A stretch of DNA of 23,120 bases from Candidatus Hadarchaeota archaeon (GCA_964561735.1 CAZLQN010000005.1:1-23120); one strand, 5' to 3'; shown: positions 1 to 19,803, numbered from the stretch's first letter. The notes: generated by a model not told the origin, from the letters alone. Made by a program: numbers and translations.

Positions 1-504
1 CCTCAGTATGTCGATGTGTTTCCCCCTTAACGTGGCGAGCGTAGCCTCCCGCCTGTCGAGCGTGACGAAGCCGATCGTTTCCTTGACCTGTAGTATCTCT
101 CGCAAAGGTTGAAGCACGAATTCTTGGTCGCAACGATACATGCGCACGGTTATCGGTTCTGGCGGCTCTATCCAGTAGAGCTGTATGTCCGAGATATCTT
201 CCCGCCCGGCGACGTTTCCGCAGAAGATCGCCATGCCGTGCTCAGGTGGATACCTATGTTTGGCGGTGTAGACGCGGAGGAACTGTATCACACGTTCGAG
301 TGCCCCCACCACGTTTTTGCGTGTCGTTTTAGATTTTATGTTGGAAGCAGTGCCCTGTTCATCGCGTAGCTGTTGCATCACCTTCGTGAGATCGAAATCT
401 GGAGTAACGTAGACCGAGATCAACTCGGTCCCGCGCCCACGCTTGTCTGCAAGATCGTCGAGCAATCGCTTGAACTGGTAGCGCTTGCGACTTTCGTCCG
501 TCAT
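1..504 (-). CDS. prf1: Peptide chain release factor aRF1, N-terminal 168 codons (gene continues beyond window start)
   Basis: Not in the ORF track because it is open-ended. The reverse strand from the ATG at 504..502 reads MTDESRKRYQFKRLLDDLADKRGRGTELISVYVTPDFDL...LRDEQGTASNIKSKTTRKNV. GRGTELIS and the NIKS motif are diagnostic of eRF1/aRF1. The listed + ORF 109..369 is its antisense shadow. Confidence 0.9.
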   Translation of the reverse strand, partial: MTDESRKRYQFKRLLDDLADKRGRGTELISVYVTPDFDLTKVMQQLRDEQGTASNIKSKTTRKNVVGALERVIQFLRVYTAKHRYPPEHGMAIFCGNVAGREDISDIQLYWIEPPEPITVRMYRCDQEFVLQPLREILQVKETIGFVTLDRREATLATLRGKHIDILR

Positions 505-573
505 TTGACTCACAAGTAATCTTCTTACCGCGAGCGTTAATAGCATGTTGTCACAATAATTTTTGGCGATAGC

Positions 574-1281
574 ATGAGGGCCACGATATGTTTTGGGGGA
601 TCGATAATGATCCCAGGACAGCCCGATGTGGACACGATTCGTACAGCGACCAATGTTTTGCGGGACCTCAAGAGGAAGGGCTACGAACTTCTGGTCGTGG
701 TCGGCGGAGGCAAGGTGGCGCGGATGTACATCGACGTCGCACGTGAGTTCAAGGCGACGAACGCGTATTGCGATGTGGTTGGGGTGGATGTGACCCGATT
801 GAACGCACGTTTGCTCATCGCAGCTCTGGGTGAAGTTGCGGAACAAAATCCGATAACGACTTTCGATGCCGCAGTCCGAGCGATGTTGCGGGGCAAGATC
901 CCAGTCATGGGTGGCACGGTGCCTGGCCACACGACCGATGCGGTCGCGGCTGAGCTTGCCGATTCCAGCAGGTCAGATCTGTTGGTCTTTTTCACGAATA
1001 TCGATGGCGTCTACACGGCGGATCCGAAGGTCAATCCTCGTGCAAGGAAATTGGGTACGATGGATTCGCATCAGCTGTTGGAACTTGTCAGAAGTGTAAA
1101 GATGGAGCCAGGCATCCAAGCGATAGTGGACCCTGTTGGAGCGAAGATAATTGACCGCGCAGGGATCAAGACTTTGGTGCTGGGAAAACACGAGATCCCA
1201 CGCTTACAAAAGATTTTAGAAGGCGCGGAACACAGTGGTACCACAATAATGCCGAGGGAGAAACGTGGTCGAAGATCATAA
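574..1281 (+). CDS. pyrH: Uridylate (UMP) kinase, archaeal type
   Basis: 235 aa. Contains FGGS..., VVVGGGKVARMYIDVAR and GHTTDAVAAELA, typical of the archaeal PyrH amino-acid-kinase fold. Confidence 0.9.
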   Translation: MRATICFGGSIMIPGQPDVDTIRTATNVLRDLKRKGYELLVVVGGGKVARMYIDVAREFKATNAYCDVVGVDVTRLNARLLIAALGEVAEQNPITTFDAAVRAMLRGKIPVMGGTVPGHTTDAVAAELADSSRSDLLVFFTNIDGVYTADPKVNPRARKLGTMDSHQLLELVRSVKMEPGIQAIVDPVGAKIIDRAGIKTLVLGKHEIPRLQKILEGAEHSGTTIMPREKRGRRS

Positions 1282-1459
1282 GCATTGCGTGGTCTGCGGC
1301 AGGGCGATTGAGCCGGATAAATTTATCTGCTCTCCCGCCTGCGAAGAGGTGATGAAAAGATCCCAGAAGCAGGCGGCGCGGATGAGATTTCTGATGATAG
1401 GGATGTTTGTGGCGCTTTTCGTCGTACTAATGGTCGTGAGCTATTTGAGACAAAGTTAG
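1265..1459 (+). CDS. Small Zn-ribbon plus C-terminal transmembrane helix protein (DUF2116-like)
   Basis: 64 aa with CVVCG...CSPAC, then the hydrophobic stretch FLMIGMFVALFVVLMVV. Overlaps the pyrH stop, which suggests translational coupling. Confidence 0.6.
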   Translation: MVEDHKHCVVCGRAIEPDKFICSPACEEVMKRSQKQAARMRFLMIGMFVALFVVLMVVSYLRQS

Positions 1460-4177
1460 GACATCCCTATCAAAATTTTTAGTGCTGGTTCAGAGATATC
1501 AATTATTTCCACTTTATGTCCAGCGCTCGCCGTCTCTCTCACCACTCTGACGTCTTCTTTGTCGATGGTGAATTTTTTCCCGTTCACGGCGATAGTTAGA
1601 TCTCCAATCTCTAGTTTTCTTGCAACATCTTCTGGGTCGGCTTCTGAAATGGCGCGCAGCACAGCTTTCGCGTCGGAACGCAAGCGTGGCCCAATTTTAG
1701 CAAAGTTTGGTTCAATCGATAGGACTCGCTCGACAACCTTTGGTTTTTCCGTCGTCACCAGAAGTTCTCGAATCTTCATTGTGCCTCGTATGTCGTCTAT
1801 GGCTTGCTCGAGAAGTTTCGCATTTTTTTCATCTGCAGCATATATCTCGACAGAAGGCAACTCGGCGCTGAGCGCTATCCCTTTCTCCGACTTGAATTGA
1901 CGGATGGTGCTGACAACTAAATTTATGAGTTCTCCCAGCTTTTCTGCGGCTTCATCTATGAATCTATCGTCCGCGACGGGCCACTCGGAGAGGTGTATGC
2001 TTGGTTGAGTGTAATTCGAGGCAAAATAATTGTGATATATCTCTTCTGCGAAATGTGGAACGAATGGTGCGAGCAACTTTGCCGCCGTCAAGATAATTTT
2101 GTAGAGCGTGAATTTTGATGCTTCCGCGGTCAAGTCCTCGCCATAGAGGCGATGTTTTACCTCTTCGATGTACATGTCGCAGAACTCATGCCAGATAAAA
2201 GTTTGTACGGCGATCAACGCGCGGTTGAATTGAAAATCCTCCAAATATGCGGTGACTTCTTTGACCAGGCGATTCATCCTGCTCAATATCCATCTATCTG
2301 TCGGTCTAAACTCAAGTTTTGATGGATCGGCGGTTGTGATGTTTACACTTTCGAAATATGGACTAGCGAATCGCGCGGCGTTCCAAAACTTGCGCATGAA
2401 TTTGTAACCGAACTCGACGTCCTTCCAAGCGAATGGAATGTCGGAGCCAGTGGAAGCGCCTATCGCGGCCCACTGCCTCAATGCGTCGGCCCCGTATCTT
2501 TCTCGAGCTTTCGTGGTGTCGACGTAGTTGCCAAGAGATTTGTGCATCGCCCTTCCGTCCGCCCCCAAGACCATGCCATTGACCAGCACGGTTTTGTATG
2601 GAACCTCGCCGACCAACGCCAGAGTGCGGACGAGCAAGTAGTAATCCCAAGTTCTAATTATGTCGGTGCCGTTCGGTTGAAGATCGGCGGGAAAGAGTCG
2701 TTTGTCTAAATTTGGCCATCCAGCGTGCGCAAGTATTGTTAGAGAGCTGTCCATCCAAGTGTCGAGCACATCCATCTCTGGGACAAATTTATCGCCACTA
2801 CATTTTTGGCATTTTTTATGAGGTTCATCTTTCGATGGGTTCACCGGTAACTGATTTTCGTCTGCGACCACTGGAGAGCCGCACTTTGAACAATACCATA
2901 CAGGGATAGGGGTCGCAAAAATGCGCTGTCTCGATATCACCCAGTCCCAGTCCATCGCCTCGGCCCACGCTATGAGGCGGGCGCGCATGTGATCGGGGAC
3001 CCAGCGCGCGCGCATGGCGCCTTCTATCACATCCTCCTTGAGATCGAGGACGCGCATGAACCACTGCTTTTTTGTTAATATTTCGACAGGCGTCTTGCAG
3101 CGCCAGCATACGCCGACGCTCTGTTTGAGTTTTTCCTGTCCACTCAACAGCCCACTTGTCTTGATTTTTTTGAGCACGAGTTCTTTGCACTCGGCAAGCG
3201 AGAGCCCCACGTACTCTCCAGCGGCCTCGCTCATGCGGCCACGCTCGTCGATGGCTTTTATGACGGGCAGCTTGTAGCGCATGGCCCAGCGGACATCCGT
3301 CTTGTCGCCGTAGGTGCATATCATCACCACGCCGGTGCCGAACTGCGGGTCGACCTCGCGATCCTCTATGATTTCTACGATTCGACCGAATACCGGAACT
3401 TCGAGTTTTTTCCCGACATATTTTTTGTAGCGTTCGTCATCGGGGTGGACGGCCACTACGACGCAGGCGTGAAGATACTCCGGGCGCGTCGTTGCGATGG
3501 TCAGAAAATCGTCTTTTCCAACAATTTTGAACTTGATATAGTTCAGCGAGCTATCGCGGTCGTCGTACTCGACTTCGGCGTCGGCTATCGCCGTCTCACA
3601 TCTCGGGCACCAGTTGACCGGATGCTCGCCGCGGTAGATCAAGCCCTTGTTGTAGAGCTGAACGAATGAGAGTTGCGTCTTGCTGTAGTAGCTGGGGTCC
3701 ATCGTGCGGTATTCTGTCGACCAGTCCATCGAGAAGCCCAGCGAGTTCATCTCCTCGCGCATGTGGGCGATGTTCTCCTCGGTGAGCTTGATGCAGAGCT
3801 CGCGGAATTTTTCAGGAGGGAGGTCGCCTTTGCGGATGCCGTAGCGCTTCTCTACTTGTACTTCCGTCGGTAGACCGTGACAGTCCCATGCAGGCCCCAT
3901 GAAATATTTTCACAGAGTTCCCTGGGGAAACAACACGTTGAAGCCGCGCATCCGCTTGTAGCGTGCGACGATATCGAAGTATGTCCAGTTGAACGCCGTC
4001 CCCATGTGAAATTCTCCGCTCGGTTCCACCCTATTAGGAATATGGCGGCGGAGTGTCGATCACATAGGTTGGTGTTTTTGCATCTTCTTTCTTGAATCTA
4101 TATATGTCTAGCTCGCTCCATCGTTGTTGCCATTTTGGCTCTACTTCGAGCGGGTTGTAATCTTTCGGAACTTCCAT
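1456..4177 (-). CDS. valS: Valyl-tRNA synthetase, split into three exons 4177..4040, 4023..3919, 3888..1456 (46+35+810 = 891 aa after removal of two BHB mini-introns)
   Basis: Exon 1 reads [20 protein letters not shown]...[10 protein letters not shown]. Exon 2 reads [35 protein letters not shown]. Exon 3 reads [14 protein letters not shown]...TTRPEYLH...WVISRQR...MHKSLGN. The joined sequence matches the archaeal ValRS N-terminal pattern PPPYP(S/T)G.LH.G...[30 protein letters not shown] as I recall it. A GGAGGTG SD lies 8 nt upstream of the ATG at 4177..4175. Read unspliced, the frame hits TAA TAG at 4036..4031 and TGA inside 3889..3918. Confidence 0.85.
3889..3918 (-). other. Putative BHB mini-intron 2 of valS (30 nt)
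   Basis: All helices are read on the minus strand. Outer helix UCCC(3928-3925)/GGGA(3887-3884). Central 4-bp helix CAGG(3924-3921)/CCUG(3894-3891). 3-nt bulges GAA(3920-3918) and CAU(3890-3888). Inner 10-bp stem CUCUGUGAAA(3917-3908)/UUUCAUGGGG(3904-3895) with an AUA loop. Cutting after the second nt of each bulge joins ...CAG GGA|UGG GAC (QG|WD). The insert contains an in-frame TGA. Confidence 0.8.
4024..4039 (-). other. Putative BHB mini-intron 1 of valS (16 nt)
   Basis: Minus strand. Outer helix CUCCGC-CG(4053-4046)/CG-A-GCGGAG(4022-4014), 8 bp with one bulged A. Central helix CCAU(4045-4042)/GUGG(4029-4026). 3-nt bulges AUU(4041-4039) and AAC(4025-4023). Inner stem CCU/AGG with an AAU loop. 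Cutting after the second bulge nt removes UCCUAAUAGGGUGGAA (includes TAA TAG), corrects the +1 frame offset and gives PPPY|PSGEFHMG. Confidence 0.8.
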
Positions 4178-4180
4178 TTA
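4130..4180 (-). repeat. Direct repeat copy A: valS start region (TAA-ATG plus codons 1-16), attached to the valS body
   Basis: 51 nt, 45/51 identical to 6231..6281. 4130-4153 is a 24-nt perfectly identical core (codons 9-16, PLEVEPKW). 4171-4180 is also identical. The 6 mismatches all lie in 4154-4170. Confidence 0.9.
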
Positions 4181-6254
4181 TGCATACACCTCCTTGTTAG
4201 TTTTTACAGGTTATCTTATATCTCTGTATCCCATTTTAGTAATAACATATTTTGACAATATTGATTCTTTCGATTTTTTGATATATCGCCCTCTACTAAT
4301 TTTATGAATATATCCCCGGTCAGACATTTCTCGCAAAGCCACGATCGCTGGCATTGTCACTCGATTTGAATTAGGAACTTGGCTGCCACCTAGCCTCGTG
4401 GATATCATTGCCGCATCAACATACCCATGCTTTAGTTGAAGGTCATTAAGAATTGGCAGAATATATCGTTCATAGCGTAAGCATTGCTCAGCTGCTTTGT
4501 TGAGTGCGGCAGATTTTCTCGCGATTCGGAACCCAACTTTTCTGTTGTATTTAATCAAATTATCTGGACCACTAATACGGAGTTGCCATTTAGCCCGTAA
4601 TTTTCCATTAAGAGTTTGATAAATCTCTAGCGGGTGAACTGTAGAAGTTATGTTTAGCCTACTGAGAATCTTTTGTTCGTCGAGGATTATTTTTGGTGGA
4701 TGATCCGTGGCATATTTTTGAACACTGTCTTGCAAACGACTGAAGGTAATCCTTTCATTAGCTTCAAGCTCGATTTTGGGTAGAAGTCCAGTAATGTCAG
4801 TAGAGCGTCGCCAATAAATGCCGTATAAATTATGCTGTGGATGATAAACAACGTGCCCTTCATCATCTCCTGTTTGTTGGAGCCAAGCGATCCATATAGT
4901 TTCTTTTTCACTTTTCATCACAAACTCGGGAATGCCGTGATAACTCTCAGCTTTGGGGCTAGTCATCACTCCTACGATTAACAAAATATCACGCACAACA
5001 GTGGGATAAATCAGATAAGTGTCTTTGCTGAAATTAACTCTATATGTTTGAGCATTTCCTCCAAAAGCAGCGATTGCATCATCGATAGCGTTCTGTATTT
5101 GTTCTGGATCTTCTTTGGCAAAATAGATTAGCGATCCATAACCATGACGAGGCCCATAGCTTCTAGTTAGAATATCATCTCCACAGGCTCTAGCGGCTGT
5201 TCGCACGAATGCAGGGTGGTAAATGTCAACAGGCAGGTGAGGGTTATGTATCCCTCGCCCATGTTTTGGGCCTATCCATATCATGTGTTTTTGGGCAGCA
5301 TCCAGAGAAAACATTGGATTATACGTGTTCAAAAAATTTAACAATTTAATCAGTTTGTCTATTCTGATACGCCTACAATATTTGAGGTGATAGAAAATAC
5401 TTTTTGGATTGCCACATAATCTAGCGGCTTTGGTGAAATTATTACTCACCAGATTTTTTATTACATTACAGATCAATTGTACATATTGCTCTGATAATAC
5501 AACAAATGTTTGTTTCGGAGGCAGATCCCAGAAATTTATTGTGTGTAACAAACTTATCCCGCGTGGTCCTGTTAGACTGTATTTAAGCGTCTTTGGGGGA
5601 GGGAGAGGTCAGTGAAAGTAATATTTAAAATATCTTCTTTAGTACTTGTGGTAACTCAGTAAAACTATGAATTTCAAAATCAAAGTCATCGTTTGATTTT
5701 TCTCGAGCAAATTTAATTGTTTTGATACCTATCTCAGATGCCGGGCGAAGATTTTTTGACCTGTCGTCTACAAAAACACAGTCTAAAGGAGATGATTGGA
5801 TTCTATTTAACAGAACATTGTAAATTCTTTTGTCAGGTTTACGATATCCGACTTCTCCACTTACAACAACGATTTTGAATAGCCTGTTTAAACCGAATTT
5901 GGTGCATAGATAGTTAGACCATTCTTTCACATCATTACTCAATATCGCTAGAAAATAATTTTTTGTCAATGGTTTTGCAACCCCAATAAAATCAGGATCT
6001 ATCTCCAAGCACGTATCGAGATACTCTCTCTCAATTTCTAGATATTCGTCACCAAAGCCCAATTCTTTCCAGAAATCGAATGATGAAATCTCTCCTAAAC
6101 TTGCCCTTAAATACATTTCATTGATTTTCTCTGCAGAGATCATTTCATTTCTTTTTTGAATATATGGCACGAGTAAATCATTCACATCATCTGTAACTTT
6201 GAAAATGACGCCCATCATATCTAGAATAACCCATTTTGGCTCTACTTCGAGCGG
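4154..6254 (-). mobile_element. About 2.1-kb AT-rich insertion inside the 5' end of valS (two genes), bounded by the valS-start direct repeats; ends ambiguous within the 24-nt core
   Basis: Base composition shifts sharply to AT-rich between about 4181 and 6230. Imperfect 51-nt direct repeats with a perfect 24-nt core flank it. The cargo is unrelated to neighbouring housekeeping genes. No recognisable tyrosine or serine recombinase is present. Confidence 0.6.
4211..5551 (-). CDS. Hypothetical protein with an apparent double LAGLIDADG-like core flanked by an N-terminal HTH-like and a C-terminal winged-helix-like region (candidate homing-endonuclease relative)
   Basis: A 446-aa ORF in AT-rich DNA is unlikely to arise by chance. 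Two LAGLIDADG-position motifs are FVRTAARACGDDILT and IWIAWLQQTGDDEGHV. The second is preceded by K....GIPEFVMKSEKE. A typical post-core signature follows: LRISGPDNLIKYNRKVGFRIARKSAALNKA. The C-terminus AIVALREMSDRGYIHKISRGRYIKK looks like a winged helix. The start is TTG in the track, so the true start is uncertain. The family call comes from motif reading only. Confidence 0.45.
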   Translation of the reverse strand: MLHTINFWDLPPKQTFVVLSEQYVQLICNVIKNLVSNNFTKAARLCGNPKSIFYHLKYCRRIRIDKLIKLLNFLNTYNPMFSLDAAQKHMIWIGPKHGRGIHNPHLPVDIYHPAFVRTAARACGDDILTRSYGPRHGYGSLIYFAKEDPEQIQNAIDDAIAAFGGNAQTYRVNFSKDTYLIYPTVVRDILLIVGVMTSPKAESYHGIPEFVMKSEKETIWIAWLQQTGDDEGHVVYHPQHNLYGIYWRRSTDITGLLPKIELEANERITFSRLQDSVQKYATDHPPKIILDEQKILSRLNITSTVHPLEIYQTLNGKLRAKWQLRISGPDNLIKYNRKVGFRIARKSAALNKAAEQCLRYERYILPILNDLQLKHGYVDAAMISTRLGGSQVPNSNRVTMPAIVALREMSDRGYIHKISRGRYIKKSKESILSKYVITKMGYRDIR

Positions 6255-6278
6255 ATCGTAATCCTTTGAGACTTCCAT
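5625..6278 (-). CDS. HAD-superfamily hydrolase (subfamily IA-like) whose first 16 codons are a copy of the valS N-terminus
   Basis: Motif I ILDMMGV (nucleophile Asp present, Asp+2 replaced by Met). Motif II LAILSND. Motif III YRKPDKRIY. Motif IV VFVDDRSKNL. N-terminus [16 protein letters not shown] equals repeat copy B. Confidence 0.8.
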   Translation of the reverse strand: MEVSKDYDPLEVEPKWVILDMMGVIFKVTDDVNDLLVPYIQKRNEMISAEKINEMYLRASLGEISSFDFWKELGFGDEYLEIEREYLDTCLEIDPDFIGVAKPLTKNYFLAILSNDVKEWSNYLCTKFGLNRLFKIVVVSGEVGYRKPDKRIYNVLLNRIQSSPLDCVFVDDRSKNLRPASEIGIKTIKFAREKSNDDFDFEIHSFTELPQVLKKIF

Positions 6279-6281
6279 TTA
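6231..6281 (-). repeat. Direct repeat copy B: displaced valS start region, now the first 16 codons of the HAD ORF
   Basis: Encodes [16 protein letters not shown] versus [16 protein letters not shown] in copy A. It is followed by G+C-rich backbone sequence on its promoter side (6282-6340). Confidence 0.9.
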
Positions 6282-6340
6282 AACCAACCAAGAATCAGGG
6301 GCCGAAAGGAAAACATCGATTAGATCGCGTGGAGATTGTT

Positions 6341-7195
6341 CTATTTTTTCCTTGCCTTCTTCACGGCCCGCATGTATTTTTTTACTCTAGATATATCGAC
6401 AGGATTTTCGTTCACCCCACCTTTTTTCAGGTCCGTCCCGACGATGATCCCGTCGGCATATTTTAGAAAATCTTTGACATTTGCAGCAGTGGTGCCGCTC
6501 CCAACGAGCACCGGCGTGTCCCCAGCAAATTCTTTGGCCTTCTTGACTTTCTCCAGCTCGGGAGCCCAACCAGTCAATTTTCCGCTGACGATGAGCGCGT
6601 CGGCGAGATATCGTTCGGTCCACAGTATATGTGTTTCCAAATCGATGCCGGGGAAAGGCACTGAATGTTTTTTGTCGACATCGGCGAAGATCTTGATGTG
6701 TTCAGCCCCCAAGTGTTTTCTCAACCTCAACAGTTCTGCAGCGCAACCGTGGTCAAATTCACCCGTGTCCCAGACCCTTGCTCCCGCCAAAAGACAAATC
6801 CGAACGAATTTCGCTCCAGAAGCAACCGCGATGGATAGCGTCACCTTTCCACCGTTGTGGATGACGTTTATCCCCGTTGGAAGGTTGGTGTTTTTGATTA
6901 CTTCCCTCGCCACGACGGCTTGTGCAGTCATCTCCTCTGGTGGCACATCCTCTCCGACGTAGTACGGATGGTCCCACATGTTCTCTACCATCAGCCCGTC
7001 AACGCCGCCCTCCTCGAGATTTTTCGCGTCGGCAAGAGCTTTCTCGATGATGGTATCCATGCCATAAAAATCGTAGCCTGGTGCGCCTGGCAAGGGTATC
7101 AGGTGGACCATCCCTACTATCGGTTTATCCACCGCGAAAATTTCTTGCAAATTTTTCATTTTCACATTATCCATTTTTTCTTTCCACTCCACCAT
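6341..7195 (-). CDS. BtpA/SgcQ-family TIM-barrel protein
   Basis: 284 aa. GMVHLIPLPGAPGY near the N-terminus and an alternating beta/alpha pattern ending in VLVGSGTT...GIIVGT, as in the BtpA family. A GGGGTG SD lies upstream. Confidence 0.75.
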   Translation of the reverse strand: MVEWKEKMDNVKMKNLQEIFAVDKPIVGMVHLIPLPGAPGYDFYGMDTIIEKALADAKNLEEGGVDGLMVENMWDHPYYVGEDVPPEEMTAQAVVAREVIKNTNLPTGINVIHNGGKVTLSIAVASGAKFVRICLLAGARVWDTGEFDHGCAAELLRLRKHLGAEHIKIFADVDKKHSVPFPGIDLETHILWTERYLADALIVSGKLTGWAPELEKVKKAKEFAGDTPVLVGSGTTAANVKDFLKYADGIIVGTDLKKGGVNENPVDISRVKKYMRAVKKARKK

Positions 7196-7265
7196 GTAGA
7201 AACACCCCTTTGTTTTTCATAGTGTGATAGAGTAATAAATTTGTTGTTAGATTCAACTCGTGACT

Positions 7266-8117: not shown

Positions 8118-8148
8118 GTTGTCACCGCAAGAAGTTAATTGGTAATAT

Positions 8149-8883
8149 CTATCTCCGATTTTCCCTTACGTAACCGATTATTGCGTTATCAATTAATTTT
8201 GGTATAGAAGTGGTGAAATTTTCTTTATTTTTTCTTTTCCAATAAATAGTTTCAATGCGATCTACTTTTTTACAGATCAAATAGAATCCATCAAATACTT
8301 CTAAAAACATGTCTTTCTGCTTTTCTTCTGATTTTGGTATGTAGAGTTCCTTGACGAATTTTTCTTTATAAAAGAAATTTATGGTATGTCTTCTGTCTAT
8401 GGGTGGAATTAAATCAGGCAAGAGATGATGTAGTGTTTTAGAATTTCCAACTAATTTAGGTCTTTCCATTACTTCTGGATTTTTAGTTTCTTTTTTCATT
8501 ATTTCTAAATTTTCAAAGAGGTTTGATAAAGTTGGTTTTATTTTTTCCTTGTCATTATCATCTAATTCATGTAATTTAAATTTAGTTAATTTTTCTAACG
8601 TATCTATATTACTTCGGATATTTTGTTTAAAATTTTCAAAATCTTCTAATAACGCACTTTTAGTCATCCTGTGCATACCCCAAGAGGCCAAAGTAGCGTA
8701 GATACGTTCGATAAACATATCCTCTTTTTCCAATAATTCTCGATAATCTTTTGTGTTTCGAATCATGTAAAGAACTCTTCCATGAAAATAGACACTTGGA
8801 CCAGAAAAAGGATTTTTATAATATTTATCGACGAAAGACTCAAACTTCTTTGTTAATTTTTCGATTCTAGTTTCAACGTTCAT
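8149..8883 (-). CDS. Hypothetical protein (single gene of an AT-rich island)
   Basis: 244-aa ORF in strongly AT-rich DNA, Lys/Glu/Asn-rich. I cannot name a family. The conserved-looking segment is VGNSKTLHHLLPDLIPPIDRRHT. Confidence 0.65.
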   Translation of the reverse strand: MNVETRIEKLTKKFESFVDKYYKNPFSGPSVYFHGRVLYMIRNTKDYRELLEKEDMFIERIYATLASWGMHRMTKSALLEDFENFKQNIRSNIDTLEKLTKFKLHELDDNDKEKIKPTLSNLFENLEIMKKETKNPEVMERPKLVGNSKTLHHLLPDLIPPIDRRHTINFFYKEKFVKELYIPKSEEKQKDMFLEVFDGFYLICKKVDRIETIYWKRKNKENFTTSIPKLIDNAIIGYVRENRR

Positions 8884-8958
8884 AATTCTCGTTCATAACT
8901 ATAGACTCACAACCTTAAGTTAATTTTAATCCTGCGTTTTTTGTGCACAAAGTTCAAA

Positions 8959-10317: not shown

Positions 10318-11373
10318 CTACTCCTTCCACTTGAATAATAGAAATCCAAGGATGAGGAAAAACAGAGCGAAGCCGGCCAAAACTGCGAGCGAGGGCACTA
10401 TATCGAGTAGACCTTTGCCACGGACAATCACGTCTTGGAAGGCGTTCATGGCGTGGGTGGTTGGGAATATCCGTGCGACGCTCTGCATAAATCCTGGCAT
10501 GATTTCGATCGGGAACCATAGCCCTCCAAGCGCGGCGGCTGGAAATGTGAAGGCCTGCACAGCCCCGCTGGCTGCGTCCGGGGAGCGCGCGAACGTCGAT
10601 ATCAGGAGCCCGAGTCCAACGCCAAATACGATCACGATGGCGCTGATCAATGCTAAAAGTAGATAGCTACCTGCCACTGGCATGCCGAACACGAGGATTC
10701 CGACCCCGAAGAACACCATCGTCTGCATACATCCGATGGCAAATCCACTCAGGAGCTCCCCGCCCAGAAAACTCGGCTTGCTGATCGGCGTGAGGAGGTT
10801 GCGTTTGAACGTGCCAGTTTTTCGCTCTAGGACGATCCTAGTCGATGCGCCTATCCCACCTACCATCAATATCATCATTATCCCCATCCCAGGGACGTAC
10901 TGTTGGGCCGCGTTCCATTCCTTGTACCCGCCCCGGACGCTCTCTGTGGTGATTGGCGCCCCCATTCCGAAAAATTGTTGGGTGACTCCTTCGACTATTT
11001 GCACGGCCGTGGTCGCCAACTCCCCGCGGGTTTCATCGTAGATGAACCGTGCATTTTCGGCGCCAGCGCTAAATCCGCTCGGGACGATCAGCACGCCCAC
11101 ATCTTTGCCATCTAGCACCCTAGCCTCGGCCTCCGCGACGTTTTCGAGCTTCTCAATATTGAAGACGTTTTCAAGCACGGATATGTAGGTGTTGGCCAGC
11201 TGGCCGTTGTCCTGCTGAACTGCGAGTATATTTATCCGAACGCTACCTCGACCACTGAACGCCAAGCTGAAGACCATGATGAGCAGTAGAGGAAACGCGA
11301 ATGTCCAGAACAGACCCATCCGATCCCTAAAGAAGAGGCGCAAGTTTTTGTCCGCGATCGTCAAGGACTTCAT
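10318..11373 (-). CDS. ABC-2 type transporter permease
   Basis: 351 aa. An N-terminal TM helix, a large extracytoplasmic loop, then 5 C-terminal TM helices. Lies immediately downstream of the ATPase gene (1-nt gap). Confidence 0.85.
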   Translation of the reverse strand: MKSLTIADKNLRLFFRDRMGLFWTFAFPLLLIMVFSLAFSGRGSVRINILAVQQDNGQLANTYISVLENVFNIEKLENVAEAEARVLDGKDVGVLIVPSGFSAGAENARFIYDETRGELATTAVQIVEGVTQQFFGMGAPITTESVRGGYKEWNAAQQYVPGMGIMMILMVGGIGASTRIVLERKTGTFKRNLLTPISKPSFLGGELLSGFAIGCMQTMVFFGVGILVFGMPVAGSYLLLALISAIVIVFGVGLGLLISTFARSPDAASGAVQAFTFPAAALGGLWFPIEIMPGFMQSVARIFPTTHAMNAFQDVIVRGKGLLDIVPSLAVLAGFALFFLILGFLLFKWKE

Positions 11374-11374
11374 C

Positions 11375-12310
11375 CTAATCCCTCAGAGTTTTACCAGTCA
11401 ATTTTATGAACACGTCCTCGAGCGTCGGTTGAGCGATGTGTAGCGAGTCTATCGAAACGCCAACATCGGTCACCGCCCTGACGACTTGGCTGAGCACGCT
11501 ATCGGCGGATGGCGTGAACAATCTCAAGCCCTCCGGCGAGCGAACCACTTTCTTGACGCCCCGAAGCTTTTTCAGCTCGACCATCAGCTTGCGCGGAACT
11601 TTCACGGCCTTGAGCTCGATAGTTTCGAGCTTGCCCATGGAATGCTTGAGCGCATCCGGCTTGTCGAGGGCAATGATCTTGCCGTTATCCATGACGGCGA
11701 CTCGGTCGCAGAGATAATCTGCTTCGTCCATGTAATGCGTGGTCAGCAAAATCGTAACTCCCTTCGATTGGAACCGCTTGATGATTTCCCAAACGGCTAG
11801 CCGCGCTTGAGGGTCGAAGCCGGTCGTCGGCTCGTCCAGAAAGAGCACCTTTGGCATGTGGACAAGTCCGACAGCCAGGTTGAGGCGGCGTTTCATGCCA
11901 CCAGAGAAGGTCTTGACGCGGTCGTTTGCTCTATCTTTGATCTGCACCATCACAAGTAGCTCATCGATCCACTTTCGAAGTTTTTTACCCTCTACACCTT
12001 GAAGCTTCCCGAAGTATGCCAGGTTCTCCGCGGCGGTCAGATCGTCATATACCCCAGCCTCCTGAGTCACGACCCCAATTATCTGACGAACCTCCTTGGG
12101 CTGTTTCTTTATGTCGTATCCGCCGACGATTGCTGTGCCTTCGGTTGGGGGCAGAATTGTTGAGAGCATGGCCACCGTCGTGCTCTTGCCGGCTCCATTT
12201 GGGCCAAGTAGGCCGAAGAGCTCGCCCTCTTCGATGGTCAAGTTCATGTTGTTGACGGCTTTTCTACCATCGAACATTTTCGACAGGCTTCTGGTTTCAA
12301 CTATGGACAT
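11375..12310 (-). CDS. ABC transporter ATP-binding protein (ABC-2/DrrA-like exporter subunit)
   Basis: Walker A GPNGAGKST, Q-loop, signature FSGGMKRRL, Walker B VLFLDEPTTGFD, H-loop TTHYMDEA. Confidence 0.9.
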   Translation of the reverse strand: MSIVETRSLSKMFDGRKAVNNMNLTIEEGELFGLLGPNGAGKSTTVAMLSTILPPTEGTAIVGGYDIKKQPKEVRQIIGVVTQEAGVYDDLTAAENLAYFGKLQGVEGKKLRKWIDELLVMVQIKDRANDRVKTFSGGMKRRLNLAVGLVHMPKVLFLDEPTTGFDPQARLAVWEIIKRFQSKGVTILLTTHYMDEADYLCDRVAVMDNGKIIALDKPDALKHSMGKLETIELKAVKVPRKLMVELKKLRGVKKVVRSPEGLRLFTPSADSVLSQVVRAVTDVGVSIDSLHIAQPTLEDVFIKLTGKTLRD

Positions 12311-12511
12311 AACAATCTACTCGCAGATTTACTGTACATGCTCTTAAAAATTTAACCATAGCCAAGCCTTCGCTGGGCAGGTGAACCGTTTGGCATATAA
12401 ACCCCCTCGTTCAGATAAAATAGGATACTGAGAGGCTTCAACGGAAGCCGTTCAAGAGGGGCAGCCAAGCTGTTTCTTTTGAGATGTATCCTAAAAATAG
12501 GAGTGTATAAA

Positions 12512-12682
12512 ATGGAACCAAGACGTTTCGGCCGCAGGGAAGGCTTCCAGCGCGAGATGCATAAGGCTACCTGCTCCGACTGTGGAGCGGAGACGGAAGT
12601 CCCCTTCAAGCCGACCGAAGGAAGACCTATATATTGTAGGGAATGCTTCCAGAAGCGCAGACCCGCGAGACCCCGATACTGA
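12512..12682 (+). CDS. Small Arg-rich CxxC...CxxC zinc-ribbon protein
   Basis: MEPRRFGRREGFQREMHKATCSDCGAETEVPFKPTEGRPIYCRECFQKRRPARPRY. ATG at 12512 lies 8 nt after GGAG (12500-12503). The longer track start at 12479 lacks an SD. Confidence 0.7.
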   Translation: MEPRRFGRREGFQREMHKATCSDCGAETEVPFKPTEGRPIYCRECFQKRRPARPRY

Positions 12683-12783
12683 AGGCTTTTAATTGGGCCT
12701 AATTCTGGGCTGTTCGCTCGGGCTAGCGGTAGCTTTCTTGCGGCCTCAGAAAAAATTCAAGTGTGGTAGTCAATTCATAGCGG

Positions 12784-12802
12784 GGGCTCGTAGCTCAGCT
12801 TG
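12784..12802 (+). repeat. Orphan copy of the first 19 nt of tRNA-Ile (acceptor 5' strand plus D-arm start)
   Basis: GGGCTCGTAGCTCAGCTTG versus GGGCCCGTAGCTCAGCTTG at 13724-13742 (18/19). Same orientation. Similarity stops abruptly on both sides. The AT-rich sequence begins at 12803. Confidence 0.75.
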
Positions 12803-13723
12803 TTTTTTCTTTAAGCAGACAATTTCCTGTAGAATGATGGTTTTACAAATTGCCGAGCCCAACGTTGCCCTCCGTATATCAATAAGTAAAGATCAACTAT
12901 TGATGGTTTCAAGTTTCTGTTAACACAATATTTCTGTATGATTTTAACTACCTTCAAAAGATTCCGTTCACCTTTTTTCGATTCTACTATCCCAATCTCT
13001 TTTGAAACTTTCATGACTATTGTATCTGGTTTTATACAATCGTACCCGATATGCAAAAGGAAATGTAGTAAACTTGTCGTGTTACTAAAAAAGGCATGTC
13101 CATATTTATTAGTTCCTTTTTCAGATAGTTGAATCCTTGCCAGAAATTTTCAATATCAGATTCCTCTTTTAGGATAGTTGGTATTTTTGAAGTTTTGAGT
13201 AAATTTAGAAAAGAACCGTATTTTGATTTGATTAGCTGAAGTGTTTTTGCGCAGTAAACAATAGATTCAAGTTTTCGCGGAAATCTAATAGCTTTGATTT
13301 CTTCCCAATGAAGATTCTTTAGCTCATCAGGATCCAGTTGAGCAACTCTATCGACTTGAAAACCATGAAAAATGCGTTCAAATATTCCTTTGTTGAGCAT
13401 ATTAGATATCAAGTCAGATCGTGTATTTTGGCTGAATGCTATCAATCTAGCAAGTCGCCTTAAGACATCATCATCGTTTCGAATCACGTTGGGGGTTCTT
13501 TTCATACGCTCCTTAATTTCCTCTGAAAATTCTGGCTCTCTTCTTAAGGGATTAACTTTTTCAATGATTTGATCTATTGAACTAAATATTCGTTCAATTT
13601 CCATAGAGATGTATCCTCCCCAATTTTGGCATTTTATCCAACCACCACTTGAATTACACACCGCAGAATTTGAACTTGATTGTTGAGGGAGTATCATTTA
13701 AATTTCTGAGGACATGTTTAGTT
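12803..13723. mobile_element. About 0.9-kb AT-rich cassette inserted at the 5' end of tRNA-Ile, bounded by 19-nt direct repeats (no recombinase; probably a remnant)
   Basis: Composition shift, flanking direct repeats 12784-12802 and 13724-13742, and a single frameshifted cargo gene. A TTTAAAT TATA-like box at about 13697-13703 inside the cassette sits about 24 nt upstream of tRNA position 1. Confidence 0.55.
12811..13604 (-). pseudogene. DNA-3-methyladenine glycosylase I (Tag)-like HhH protein, interrupted by a frameshift (ORFs 13032..13697 and 12811..13056)
   Basis: Block-wise resemblance to E. coli Tag, recalled from memory. DDDVLRRLARLIAFSQ..., FHGFQVDRVAQLDPDELKNL...IKAIRFPRKLESIVYCAKTLQLIKSKYGSFLNLL is in one frame. 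GHAFFSNTTSLLHFLLHIGYDCIKPD is in the -1 frame (compare Tag GFKFVGTTICYSFMQACGLVNDH). The second frame opens only after the TGA at 13152-13150. The likely true start is the ATG at 13604, preceded by GGAGGAT. Confidence 0.5.
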
Positions 13724-13816
13724 GGGCCCGTAGCTCAGCTTGGCTGGAGCGCTCGGCTGATAACCAGTTGGGCAGCCACCGGGAGGTCCTGGGTTCAAAT
13801 CCCAGCGGGCCCACCA
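13724..13816 (+). tRNA. tRNA-Ile (anticodon GAU) with a 15-nt intron at canonical position 37/38 (13763..13777); genome-encoded CCA
   Basis: GGGCCCG UA GCUC AGCUUGGCUG GAGC G CUCGG CUGAUA[ACCAGUUGGGCAGCC]A CCGGG AGGUC CUGGG UUCAAAU CCCAG CGGGCCC A CCA. The intron forms a relaxed BHB: CUG/CAG pairing of the anticodon region with the intron, and bulges UAA and CCA. Confidence 0.9.
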
Positions 13817-13847
13817 TTAAAAACTTTTGAGGTTAGTCAAACAATCT

Positions 13848-14681
13848 ATGTGTGATAAGATGATCGATGAAAAGCTCTCGCGAATGAAGTCCGCGATCGG
13901 CGAATGTGGTAGCGCCGTGATAGCGTTCTCTGGCGGAGTAGATTCGTCGCTAGTTTGCGCTGTTGCCCATGAAGTTTTGGGTGGCAATGTTGTTGCAGTC
14001 ACAGCTATCTCTCCAACATATCCTTCTGGAGAAATTGAGGTCGCAAAAAAAGTCGCTGGACAGATAGGCATCAAGCACATGGTCATAACCACGAATGAGC
14101 TCAGGGACAAGAACTTCACAAAGAATCCCGCCGAGCGATGTTACTACTGTAAGAGTGAACTTCTGAGAAAGCTCGATGGTGTGCGAAAAAAACTGAGATT
14201 TAAAAAGATCTTCGATGGGACAAATCGCGATGATTTTTTGGATTTCCGACCGGGGTTGCGCGCGGTGGAAGAATTCAACGTTTTAAGCCCCCTAGCGCTC
14301 GCTGGGATGACGAAGGAGGATGTGAGGAAGCTCGCCGTGCGGCTCGGCCTGCCGAGCGCCGACAAGCCCGCGACCCCATGTCTTGCATCGAGGATACCGT
14401 TCGGTCAAAAAATTACGCGAAGAAAGTTGCAGCGTATAGCAAAGGGCGAGGAGTTCATGCGCTCTTTGGGATTTCGAGTCGTGCGGGTGCGTGACCACGG
14501 CGATCTTGCGAGGGTGGAAGTTGGAAAGGATGAGCTGAAAAAAGCTAAAAAGCTCGAGGATAAAATTTGTGCAGCTTTGAAAAAGATAGGTTACATTCGG
14601 GTAGAACTAGATCCTCGTGGCTACCGCATGGGTGGCGCAAATCGACTGGAGTCAAGTAGATTCAACTTGGTTCGAGCATGA
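13848..14681 (+). CDS. larE: LarE-like PP-loop ATP-dependent sulfur transferase (COG1606 family)
   Basis: PP-loop AFSGGVDSS, CYYCK, and the PCLASRIPFG motif containing the LarE sacrificial-Cys position. The start is uncertain: TTG 13827, ATG 13848 or ATG 13860. Confidence 0.75.
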   Translation: MCDKMIDEKLSRMKSAIGECGSAVIAFSGGVDSSLVCAVAHEVLGGNVVAVTAISPTYPSGEIEVAKKVAGQIGIKHMVITTNELRDKNFTKNPAERCYYCKSELLRKLDGVRKKLRFKKIFDGTNRDDFLDFRPGLRAVEEFNVLSPLALAGMTKEDVRKLAVRLGLPSADKPATPCLASRIPFGQKITRRKLQRIAKGEEFMRSLGFRVVRVRDHGDLARVEVGKDELKKAKKLEDKICAALKKIGYIRVELDPRGYRMGGANRLESSRFNLVRA

Positions 14682-19195: not shown

Positions 19196-19342
19196 GGAAT
19201 TGCACCACTCCGCTATCGCCTCAAGTTCTTCTTTAACATTTTGGAGCTAGTTAGTTCGTATCAGCATGTAACAAGTTAGAAGGAGAGCGAAAAGTACGTG
19301 TTTAGTTGTTTAGGTTCAACTTAGTATTACGCCGCTGAGGTG

Positions 19343-19356
19343 TGCACGGCCGTGCA
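19343..19356. promoter_or_regulatory. Palindromic site 1: TGCACGGCCGTGCA (perfect 14-bp palindrome)
   Basis: Read directly. Lies 4 nt beyond the stop of the small ORF and about 150 nt upstream of the hypD start. Confidence 0.6.
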
Positions 19357-19359
19357 GTA

Positions 19360-19617
19360 TCAAGGTGGCTGGCGTCGTGCCCCGATTCTGAATTCGTACC
19401 ACTTCAACTCTGGCCCTTCGAAGTGTTTTAGGAGTTTTCTGAACTCACGCGAGTGTCTTTCGTCAACGAGATAAACCGAGCCGCCGACCTTGCTCCAGCT
19501 TTTCGGCGAGAGCCCTTCGAGGGTTCGCTTCAAGTTGATGTAAAACCACCGCTTTCGCCTCGCCTTGTCGCGGAGTTCCCACGTGAACAAAACCGATTTC
19601 TCTCGCTTGCTGTGCAC
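19360..19617 (-). CDS. Small basic hypothetical protein (85 aa), candidate DNA-binding/regulatory protein
   Basis: GTG start preceded by GGGGAG 9 nt upstream, with a TTTATAAA box at about 19656-19663. The pattern VLFTWEL / RRKRWFYINLKRTL / GGSVYLV / SREFRKLLKHF / WYEFRI suggests a beta-alpha-beta-beta-alpha-beta (ferredoxin/Cas2-like) fold. The gene is exactly bracketed by two copies of the palindrome. Confidence 0.5.
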   Translation of the reverse strand: MHSKREKSVLFTWELRDKARRKRWFYINLKRTLEGLSPKSWSKVGGSVYLVDERHSREFRKLLKHFEGPELKWYEFRIGARRQPP

Positions 19618-19626
19618 GGCCGTGAA
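19613..19626. promoter_or_regulatory. Palindromic site 2: TGCACGGCCGTGAA (13/14)
   Basis: Overlaps the GTG start codon (19617..19615) and the SD spacer of the small ORF. Confidence 0.6.
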
Positions 19627-19655
19627 CTCCCCGCCGATGCTTTGGTCGAAGGGTG

Positions 19656-19663
19656 TTTATAAA
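19656..19663 (-). promoter_or_regulatory. TATA box (TTTATAAA) for the small ORF / hyp operon direction
   Basis: About 40 nt upstream of the GTG at 19617 on the minus strand. Located between palindrome sites 2 and 3. Confidence 0.45.
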
Positions 19664-19679
19664 GACAGAACAAACACCG

Positions 19680-19693
19680 TGCACGGCCGTGCA
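19680..19693. promoter_or_regulatory. Palindromic site 3: TGCACGGCCGTGCA (perfect)
   Basis: Sits between the two divergent TATA boxes. It ends 4 nt upstream of TTATATA, which is the BRE position of the flavodiiron promoter. Confidence 0.6.
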
Positions 19694-19697
19694 TTCG

Positions 19698-19704
19698 TTA
19701 TATA
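19698..19704 (+). promoter_or_regulatory. TATA box (TTATATA) of the flavodiiron protein gene
   Basis: Consensus-like archaeal TATA element about 100 nt upstream of the ATG at 19804. Flanked by palindrome sites 3 and 4. Confidence 0.5.
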
Positions 19705-19731
19705 GGCGTTTGCCAAACGAGATGAAAATTG

Positions 19732-19745
19732 TGCACGGCCGTGAA
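19732..19745. promoter_or_regulatory. Palindromic site 4: TGCACGGCCGTGAA (13/14)
   Basis: Starts about 28 nt downstream of the TATA box 19698-19704, which is the expected transcription start of the flavodiiron gene. Confidence 0.6.
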
Positions 19746-19803
19746 GTTAGCAGGGACAGATCGGCTAAATAGATACGAGCGAAATAACTTTTGTTGGGTT
19801 AAA

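Follow-up and report, generated by a model that had tools for sequence, protein, structure and literature searches.

The only tRNA-Ile(GAU) gene found in this Hadarchaeota assembly has been separated from its native promoter by 921 bp of AT-rich DNA (positions 12803-13723), and this cassette is a recent, derived, lineage-specific insertion. Exactly empty and exactly occupied alleles were both found. Together they show that less than 1 kb of foreign DNA can sever a single-copy, presumably essential archaeal tRNA gene from its promoter, and that the gene can persist in that state in a natural population. The window, by which we mean the whole 23,120-nucleotide stretch that was analysed, is the complete contig C5 of an archaeal metagenome-assembled genome (MAG) of 1.08 Mb in 195 contigs, with 51% GC, 87.7% completeness and 6.4% contamination. 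This fragmented MAG contains a second, related population, to which belongs, for instance, contig C117, with 82% identity across the Zn-ribbon gene next to the insertion site. Comparisons were made with 65 other Hadarchaeota genomes, which are a sample of the group, so that absence is to be read as not found among the genomes searched.

The insert lies between two direct copies of the first 19 nt of the tRNA gene, GGGCTCGTAGCTCAGCTTG at 12784-12802 and GGGCCCGTAGCTCAGCTTG at 13724-13742. They are in the same orientation, 940 nt apart from start to start, and identical at 18 of 19 positions, exactly as the original prediction of a duplicated tRNA 5′ end had described them. The expectation for such a repeat by chance was zero matches, as estimated from 100 dinucleotide shuffles. 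With up to one mismatch allowed, the 19-mer occurred at these two sites only in the complete 1.08-Mb assembly. This genome-wide count, which had been proposed as a check, rules out the possibility that the 19-mer is a common D-arm word shared by many tRNA genes. Across 66 genomes of the phylum searched with a 20-mer pattern (up to 2 mismatches), all other matches that were inspected were whole tRNA genes. The first base of the repeat is exactly tRNA position 1, the bases 5′ of the two copies being unlike (gcgg and agtt), and its last base falls in the D-loop, with the D-stem halves GCTC and GAGC on either side of that loop. The similarity of the copies is too great to tell which one arrived with the insert.

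Evidence for an insertion event came from metagenome contig L083, which is about 88% identical to the window and contains a two-sided, perfect empty site. L083 has, in this order, the Zn-ribbon gene, the same upstream sequence, a single 19-mer, the same tRNA-Ile with its intron, and then the PP-loop gene. When L083 was aligned to the window, two blocks were obtained that overlapped by exactly the 19-mer, with the cassette exactly missing. The left side of the empty site was also recovered in G001, a member of the same genus, and in two further contigs (L084 and L085). In G005 the Zn-ribbon gene, tRNA-Ile and the PP-loop gene were contiguous, which is the ancestral order. The native left flank is a gene for a small treble-clef Zn-ribbon protein (12479-12682, plus strand; Pfam zf_Tbcl_2, E = 1.2e-21), and this gene adjoins tRNA-Ile in G001, G004, G005, G006, L083 and L085. 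The native right flank is a PP-loop ATPase family protein gene (13827-14681, plus strand; N-terminal matches to Pfam NAD_synthase, Asn_synthase and QueC), which lies directly 3′ of tRNA-Ile in G005, G009, G016, G022 and L083. Thus the empty-site alleles that had been anticipated in related genomes do exist, and relatives are polymorphic for the cassette, which answers the objection that they might not be. Classical 3′-side integration with a displaced 3′ fragment in G001 and L085 was considered separately and rejected, as no orphan 3′ fragment was found there.

The occupied allele was not confined to a single assembly. Six contigs from other samples (L034-L039) carried the cassette at the same place with 98.6-99.2% identity and the same frameshift, and the structure therefore recurs in seven independent assemblies (ENA, JGI and Logan), this one included. 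Because the cassette was found in six further assemblies at the same place, it is fixed in the species and does not represent an assembly artefact. No second copy of the cassette was found within its own genome, and no DNA or protein match was found in the 65 other Hadarchaeota genomes searched.

The limits of the insert were set by the exact gap in L083 and by a drop in GC content to 34%, compared to 53% and 50% in the flanks. It consists essentially of one minus-strand Tag-like gene, leaving 8 nt and 119 nt of non-cargo DNA. The start codon is an ATG at 13602-13604 with a GGAGG ribosome-binding site upstream, 119 nt of the insert lie upstream of this start, and the stop codon is 8 nt from the 19-nt stub. 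Intact homologues are 265-283 aa long, and the gene in the window is split by a frameshift into an N-terminal reading frame of 190 aa (13032-13604, minus strand) and a C-terminal part in the -1 frame (12811-13056, minus strand; HIGYDCIKPD ... GGQRWARQFV), which aligns with the C-termini of the intact proteins P0004-P0007. Frame comparison with P0004 to P0007 placed the shift at a T6 run on the sense strand (CCT TTT TTA; 13087-13092, minus strand), where the frame drops by one through a 1-nt loss that is the same in the seven assemblies. The N-terminal frame is 62% identical to P0004, and the 190-aa product has the same extent as that called in other assemblies.

The only Pfam match in the insert was Adenine_glyco (PF03352), with 29.7 bits against a cut-off of 25, and this match was partial, covering profile positions 49-115 of 177. 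TIGR00624 gave 17-22 bits on the cargo against a cut-off of 232, and the Tag chains of the PDB matched it with E = 0.055. Judged by these profile and sequence scores, the cargo is a distant relative of DNA-3-methyladenine glycosylase I (Tag) and not a Tag equivalog. The earlier description of 921 bp of AT-rich DNA carrying only a frameshifted Tag-like gene was thus accurate. Six-frame reading of the insert gave no integrase-like frame or remnant, and ORFs at 12693-12923 and 13649-13855 had no integrase-like content when their frames were judged by eye. Neither an integrase divided into Int(N) and Int(C) nor an ORF that crosses the att site was found in the insert. The 119-nt segment upstream of the cargo folded no better than shuffled sequences (z = 0.45 and 1.18).

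The closest intact relatives of the cargo that were found occur in bacterial contexts, namely a contig with ybeY, remA and aroA as neighbours, a Chloroflexi MAG (48% identity) and Vibrio megaplasmids (34% identity). In L040, L041, L042 and the Chloroflexi MAG the homologue forms a one-gene island of low GC, and the homologue on the Vibrio plasmid shows a small GC difference (39% and 42%). These other cargo copies did not define the cassette ends, as the homology in L040, L041 and L042 covers the CDS and the ribosome-binding site only, and neither flanking repeats nor tRNAs were found at the copies in these three contigs. Searches of IMG/VR and of phage and viral collections gave no match to the cargo or the cassette. 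A role of the cargo in anti-phage defence was also considered, and was dropped in view of the lack of a credible PADLOC match.

On the left side of the insert, comparison with G001 and L083 showed that the orphan stub (12784-12802, plus strand) is contiguous with the native flank, so that the fragment has stayed with its old upstream region as had been proposed. The orphaned native promoter is a TATA-like element, AAAAAATTCAAG, at 12750-12761 (plus strand), which corresponds to -34 to -23 of the stub. In G001, L083 and L085, which have the empty site, the native element reads AAAAAATTTAAG and directly precedes the intact tRNA-Ile; the cassette-bearing lineage has a T-to-C change at 12758. The stub itself, an att-like or target-duplication scar, has a T substitution at position 5 and no 5-nt deletion in the window, whereas in the six conspecific contigs it reads GGGCCCGTAGCTC-----G, with C5 and a 5-nt deletion. 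Loss of 5 nt in six strains together with T5 here indicates that the stub is a drifting, functionless and decaying scar. It had been pointed out that U5 would still pair with G68; C5 of the intact gene does face G68 and U5 could still pair with it, but this has no bearing on a stub that lacks a 3′ partner. The stub leads straight into TTTTTT at the left edge of the insert (12803-12808, plus strand, as the sequence itself shows). Oligo-T is a termination signal for archaeal RNA polymerase, and this T6 run is likely to act as a stop for transcripts from the orphaned promoter.

On the right side, the intact tRNA-Ile(GAU) (13724-13816, plus strand; ARAGORN, and 54.2 bits with Rfam) contains a 15-nt intron at 13763-13777 and is identical to the empty-site tRNA of L083, intron and T-arm included. 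Since the intron is also widespread in the family, import of the tRNA body with the insert is ruled out. The sequence 5′ of the intact gene is insert DNA only, and within it TTTAAAT at 13697-13703 (plus strand) is a candidate surrogate promoter. The original prediction was right about the presence of this box and about insert DNA with a TATA-like box at a usable distance before the tRNA; its estimate of about 24 nt needs a small correction, as the box occupies -27 to -21 of tRNA position 1. The first TATA-like hexamers of the other tRNA genes of the genome start between -39 and -23 (median -31), and the TTTAAAT box falls inside this range, at its near edge. Its context, gTAtCATTTAAAT, resembles the tRNA-Cys promoter, gAAaCATTTAAAT. 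From position and motif, we infer that tRNA-Ile is transcribed from this insert-borne, candidate TATA-like box. Because the box is on the near side of the range, the pre-tRNA may carry little or no leader. The locus provides a small natural system in which to study how archaeal promoters are replaced and possibly how tRNAs are transcribed without a leader. As this is the sole tRNA-Ile(GAU) of the assembly, the right end of the insert is probably indispensable, which would explain the persistence of a cassette with a broken cargo gene. This suggests that an insert placed at the start of an essential gene is guarded from deletion even after its cargo has decayed.

We propose, tentatively and with a probability of about 0.4, that the cassette entered by site-specific recombination, the integrase having been lost or having acted in trans. 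A foreign single-gene cassette would have been taken up by Campbell-type (single-crossover) recombination, the crossover segment being the first 19 nt of tRNA-Ile(GAU), up to the D-loop, and the resulting order would be native promoter, 19-nt stub, 921-bp insert and complete tRNA gene. The putative enzyme would be a tyrosine integrase that uses the tRNA gene's 5′ half, with a topology like that of pTN3, and it would either have acted in trans or have been encoded by a larger element that subsequently lost its interior. What is left would then resemble a cis-mobilisable element, as a remnant flanked by att sites and without an integrase. After such an event the native promoter would run into the T6 tract, the stub would be a dead scar, and the working first 19 nt may derive from the insert. 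The single-copy and presumably essential tRNA would have to use the TATA-like box of the insert at -27 to -21, and this need for a promoter would keep the right end of the insert in place despite the broken cargo. Of the earlier idea of an integrative element, the insertion itself stands, being real and lineage-specific according to the empty sites; the element as such was not substantiated, as no integrase, integrase remnant or other copy was found.

Several observations favour site-specific recombination. The repeat reaches from the D-loop to the end of the gene and is flanked by dyad symmetry, which makes it a 5′ mirror of classical tRNA att sites, and the 19-mer is unique in the genome apart from its duplication. 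Tyrosine integrases of the phylum adjoin tRNA genes, including tRNA-Ile in G046 and G049, and one integrase of this bin is separated by 60 nt from a tRNA-Pro gene's 5′ end. A second orphan fragment, comprising nt 1-20 of tRNA-Pro, likewise stops within the D-loop, and it has an integrase remnant beside it. Contigs C109 and C178 were considered as the two ends of a 5′-type tRNA-Pro element, and no link between them was found; since C33 is the genus's native tRNA-Pro(GGG) locus, C109 and C178 may derive from the second population in the bin. Against site-specific recombination, every integrase of the phylum whose position with respect to a tRNA could be established works on the classical 3′ side, as in G038 with its 17-nt 3′ repeat and in the layouts of G004, G024 and G050. 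The 19 nt are also far below the 41-43-bp pTN3 site, the insert with its 8 nt and 119 nt outside the cargo holds no integrase or fragment of one, and the candidate promoter box lies at the near edge of the range. Searches of the phylum (65 genomes), IMG/VR, phages and plasmids revealed no autonomous element that shares the att or the cargo, and the cassette is accordingly a putative remnant.

Precedents for this topology exist. The site of pTN3-like integrases is a tRNA gene's 5′ half, and once rebuilt the tRNA stands apart from its original promoter (PMC8371274; PMC5495485); for pTN3 of Thermococcus nautili (tRNA-Leu), 41 bp are shared with the target and the minimal site is 43 bp, reaching the anticodon (PMC5495485). 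In Caldiarchaeum subterraneum, a 5′ fragment of tRNA-Thr(GGU) comprising nt 1-27 precedes the intact gene by about 1.8 kb, insert-bearing and insert-free variants coexist in related genomes, and the insert, present in six copies, encodes a putative recombinase and introduced an intron at 24/25 (Sugahara et al. 2012, PMC3293823). The implication that duplication of the 5′ part of a tRNA gene is peculiar to this locus thus did not hold, since both cases precede it. A topology matching pTN3 and Caldiarchaeum is rare but not unprecedented, and the event described here is no new kind of event; it extends the rare use of the 5′ side of tRNA genes from Thermococcales and Caldiarchaeum to Hadarchaeota.

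As with pTN3, an SSV-type element of Thermococcales, a repeat of the tRNA 5′ end flanks the insert, a 5′ fragment remains at the old promoter, and the tRNA gene is separated from that promoter; with pTN3 it is read from element DNA, and in our case an element-borne candidate promoter is now in front of it. Unlike pTN3, which is about 18 kb long and whose integrase gene is split on integration, the insert measures 0.9 kb, has a single cargo gene of bacterial type and contains neither an integrase nor a remnant of one, and the repeat is 19 nt ending in the D-loop instead of 41 bp. The resemblance to tRNA-Thr of Caldiarchaeum lies in a 5′ tRNA fragment upstream of an intact gene with inserted DNA between them; unlike in that case, our insert is single-copy and without a recombinase, and the intron predates the insertion, being also present in L083. 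SXT/R391 elements integrate at the 5′ end of prfC and supply a new promoter and 5′ end. The same outcome is described for dusA-specific integrases (PMC4482086). The tRNA-Ile locus is like both of these in that the 5′ end of a conserved or essential gene has been duplicated and the working copy would be read from element DNA, whereas those elements are large and bacterial, have their own integrase and target protein genes. At the present locus a tRNA gene of an archaeon has been targeted, and no integrase is present. Cis-mobilisable elements, known from Streptococcus thermophilus, are att-flanked remnants of integrative elements without recombination genes, and the cassette is like them in being short, lacking an integrase and having direct att-like repeats. 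The tRNA-Ile cassette differs from the known cases in its host phylum, its very short repeat ending in the D-loop, its minimal size, the lack of a recombinase and its bacterial-type cargo.

Insertion without any recombinase, by short-homology or illegitimate recombination, is also plausible, and we rate it as well short of an even chance. DNA of a related archaeon, or a small circle, would have been anchored by homology in tRNA-Ile while its other end was joined at position 19, leaving the first 19 nt of the recipient as the orphan, and the repeat would start at +1 since donor and recipient were alike only inside the tRNA. In favour of this route, the insert has neither a recombinase nor terminal repeats, and the genome contains other integrase-less AT-rich cassettes, on this contig and on C31, whose flanking repeats are very unequal: the one at valS measures 51 nt, the one upstream of RPA about 22 nt, and others 6 or 0 nt. 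Such unequal repeats fit recombinase-independent insertion better than several different decayed integrative elements. Ends shared among the five cassettes of the genome were not found, except for one 12-mer. Compared with the single copy of L085, the gene-attached repeat copy at valS has about 7 differences and the orphan 3 (counted by eye), and the ribosome-binding-site region upstream of the gene-attached copy matches the native valS upstream region of L083. The greater divergence of the gene-attached copy and this match suggest that DNA of a donor lineage replaced the front of the gene there. In relatives, moreover, the slot upstream of tRNA-Ile is filled by other genes without a repeat, e.g. 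a radical-SAM gene in G007.

Other observations weigh against this recombinase-independent route. No donor allele was found, as the cassette, including its 88-nt promoter segment, was unmatched in the 65 Hadarchaeota genomes, and with the nearest relatives of the cargo being bacterial, a related archaeal donor must be assumed. Nineteen nucleotides are very short for homologous recombination, and an illegitimate joint, although possible, would not be expected to land in just the anchor's first 19 nt. Taken together with valS on the same contig, the tRNA-Ile locus suggests that small streamlined archaeal genomes acquire foreign genes at the starts of essential genes. A bolder generalisation, which we regard as unlikely, is that Hadarchaeota harbour minimal recombinase-less cassettes, each made of one gene, a promoter and a short copy of an essential gene's 5′ end. 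They would recombine into the genome at that short segment and could then no longer be deleted, since the essential gene would depend on them for its promoter and 5′ end, a form of promoter-capture addiction that would serve selfish or cargo DNA. If this were true, the promoter-capture cassettes at tRNA-Ile and valS would be distinct from integrons, IS elements and classical integrative elements.

Duplication of the target site is quite improbable as the origin of the repeat. A transposase, casposase or similar enzyme acting in trans would have made a staggered cut with nicks between positions 0/1 and 19/20 of the tRNA gene, and a direct target repeat flanking an insert that is missing from relatives would be its expected signature. 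Neither terminal inverted repeats nor a transposase or casposase was found in the insert, no other copy of it exists in the genome, and the repeat lengths at the other cassettes span 0 to 51 nt; an IS element, transposon or casposon was rejected on these same grounds. A start exactly at +1 would be a coincidence under this explanation, and the valS copies are only 88% alike, unlike a fresh duplication. An integron cassette was also considered and rejected, as only 8 nt follow the ORF, no attC fold or core sites are present, and there is a 19-nt duplication. Retroposition, suggested by the A-rich end of the cargo sense strand beside the repeat, was dropped because the other cassettes have no such tail.

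That the stub is functional, either as half of a split, trans-spliced tRNA or as a small regulatory RNA made from the old promoter, is very improbable, even with an intact promoter-like element upstream and a T-run downstream. A complete tRNA-Ile gene lies 940 nt away, and no sequence after the stub is able to pair with a 3′ half. The stub is not conserved, given the deletion in the six conspecific contigs and the substitution here, and it matched no Rfam family. Its fold z-scores are about -1.7 to -1.8, and the helix requires T5, which is missing in the sister strains. A chance repeat or an assembly chimera has nothing beyond the fragmented, mixed state of the MAG (195 contigs, 6.4% contamination) to recommend it and may be put aside as negligible in view of zero shuffle matches, seven independent assemblies and an overlap of exactly 19 nt at the empty site.

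The slot that precedes tRNA-Ile is a repeatedly used landing place. In G007, a Hadarchaeota genome of another genus, the position between the Zn-ribbon gene and tRNA-Ile was filled by a radical-SAM, SplB-like gene of the DNA-repair type (370 aa; contig C126, 437-1549, minus strand), without a tRNA stub. The bin to which the window belongs has another Zn-ribbon gene copy (82% identity) on contig C117 (3-313), where it stops approximately 22 nt ahead of the expected tRNA-Ile start, and that contig also carries a tRNA-Ala-like gene with an intron (2414-2542). The bin thus holds a second, related Hadarchaeal population.

Window positions 4130-6281 (valS cassette), 8140-8950 (a single-gene, AT-rich island), 10336-12347 (ABC-transporter pair) and 19293-19778 (palindrome cassette) were compared with the related metagenome contigs L085 and L083, and all four features had exact empty sites in L085. 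The 51-nt repeat of the valS cassette was present there as one copy, and the palindrome cassette showed a 6-nt repeat (GCGAAA), while the island and the ABC-transporter pair were without flanking repeats relative to their empty sites. The orphan copy of the valS repeat looks more native-like than the copy attached to the gene. Window 4204-7214 was missing from L083, although the cassette-type RBS region before valS was nonetheless common to both. In the conspecific contig L034, a DDE_Tnp_1 transposase of 501 aa (10941-12446), located beyond an AsnC-family gene, lies approximately where the window has the 8140-8950 island, and thus this neighbourhood is variable even among strains. A third AT-rich cassette was identified on contig C31 of the same MAG (1771-2964), upstream of an RPA-like gene, and was missing from G001, another Hadarchaeota genome. 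It contains a Fic-domain gene (HPFQDGNGRVGR motif) together with a 71-nt copy of RPA codons 31-54 (97% identical), and is flanked by a repeat of approximately 22 nt (CCTGAAAA..GGTGACCACAAAA).

A 12-mer, AC[AG]TGTTTAGTT, occurred at just two sites in the 1.08-Mb genome, one being the final 12 nt of the tRNA-Ile cassette (13712-13723) and the other lying in the palindrome cassette (19296-19307), where it begins 4 nt in from the left end. Because its polarity with respect to the repeat is unlike at the two sites, this sharing is probably a coincidence (rough p of 0.01-0.05).

Contig C109 of the MAG carries a second orphan tRNA 5′ fragment (41-60), identical (100%) to nt 1-20 of tRNA-Pro(GGG). It is preceded by a promoter-like TTTATT and also stops in the D-loop, after AGCTTGG. 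Downstream of it (60-230) were observed another, 9-nt copy of the tRNA start and the C-terminal ~40 aa of a tyrosine integrase, degenerate and frameshifted; a winged-helix gene is located 3′ of the orphan as well. Full-length relatives (323-328 aa) were found in two other Hadarchaeota genomes, G045 and G038. The element in G038 uses tRNA-Ser at its 3′ end, and the 17-nt repeat is located at a distance of 9.6 kb. On contig C178, an intact integrase of approximately 440 aa (456-1775, minus strand) has its start at a distance of 60 nt from a tRNA-Pro(GGG) gene (1836-1889, plus strand; cut by the contig end), on the 5′ side of that gene. The integrase is oriented away from the tRNA gene, and the TATA-like CATATAAAAG separates the two. 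This is the layout expected of an element integrated on the 5′ side; no link between C178 and C109 could be demonstrated.

Introns of tRNA-Ile(GAU), compared among the genes of L059-L068, L073-L075 and L083-L085, were polymorphic between close relatives, numbering 0, 1 or 2. A single intron follows position 37/38, and where there are two, the extra one is 16 nt long and precedes the T-arm. An intron was present in this MAG, G002 and L083, and absent in G001, L084 and L085. The T-stems of these relatives showed compensatory changes.

The cargo of the tRNA-Ile cassette is repair-related, as is that of the G007 slot. Alignment to intact homologues placed the break in its Tag-like gene at window 13086-13094 (minus strand), as a 1-base loss in CCT TTT TTA. 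In the correct frame, the site also contains T TTT TTA, a slippery heptamer of the canonical -1 type, so some full-length protein may conceivably be produced by frameshifting. The closest plasmid-borne relative of the cargo gene (34% identity) was found in Vibrio penaeicida plasmid NZ_AP025146.1 (39765-40535). It sits within a row of small hypothetical genes, of which several are co-stranded and separated by short spacers, an arrangement that resembles a cassette array. Close to it there is also a gene with a HAD domain.
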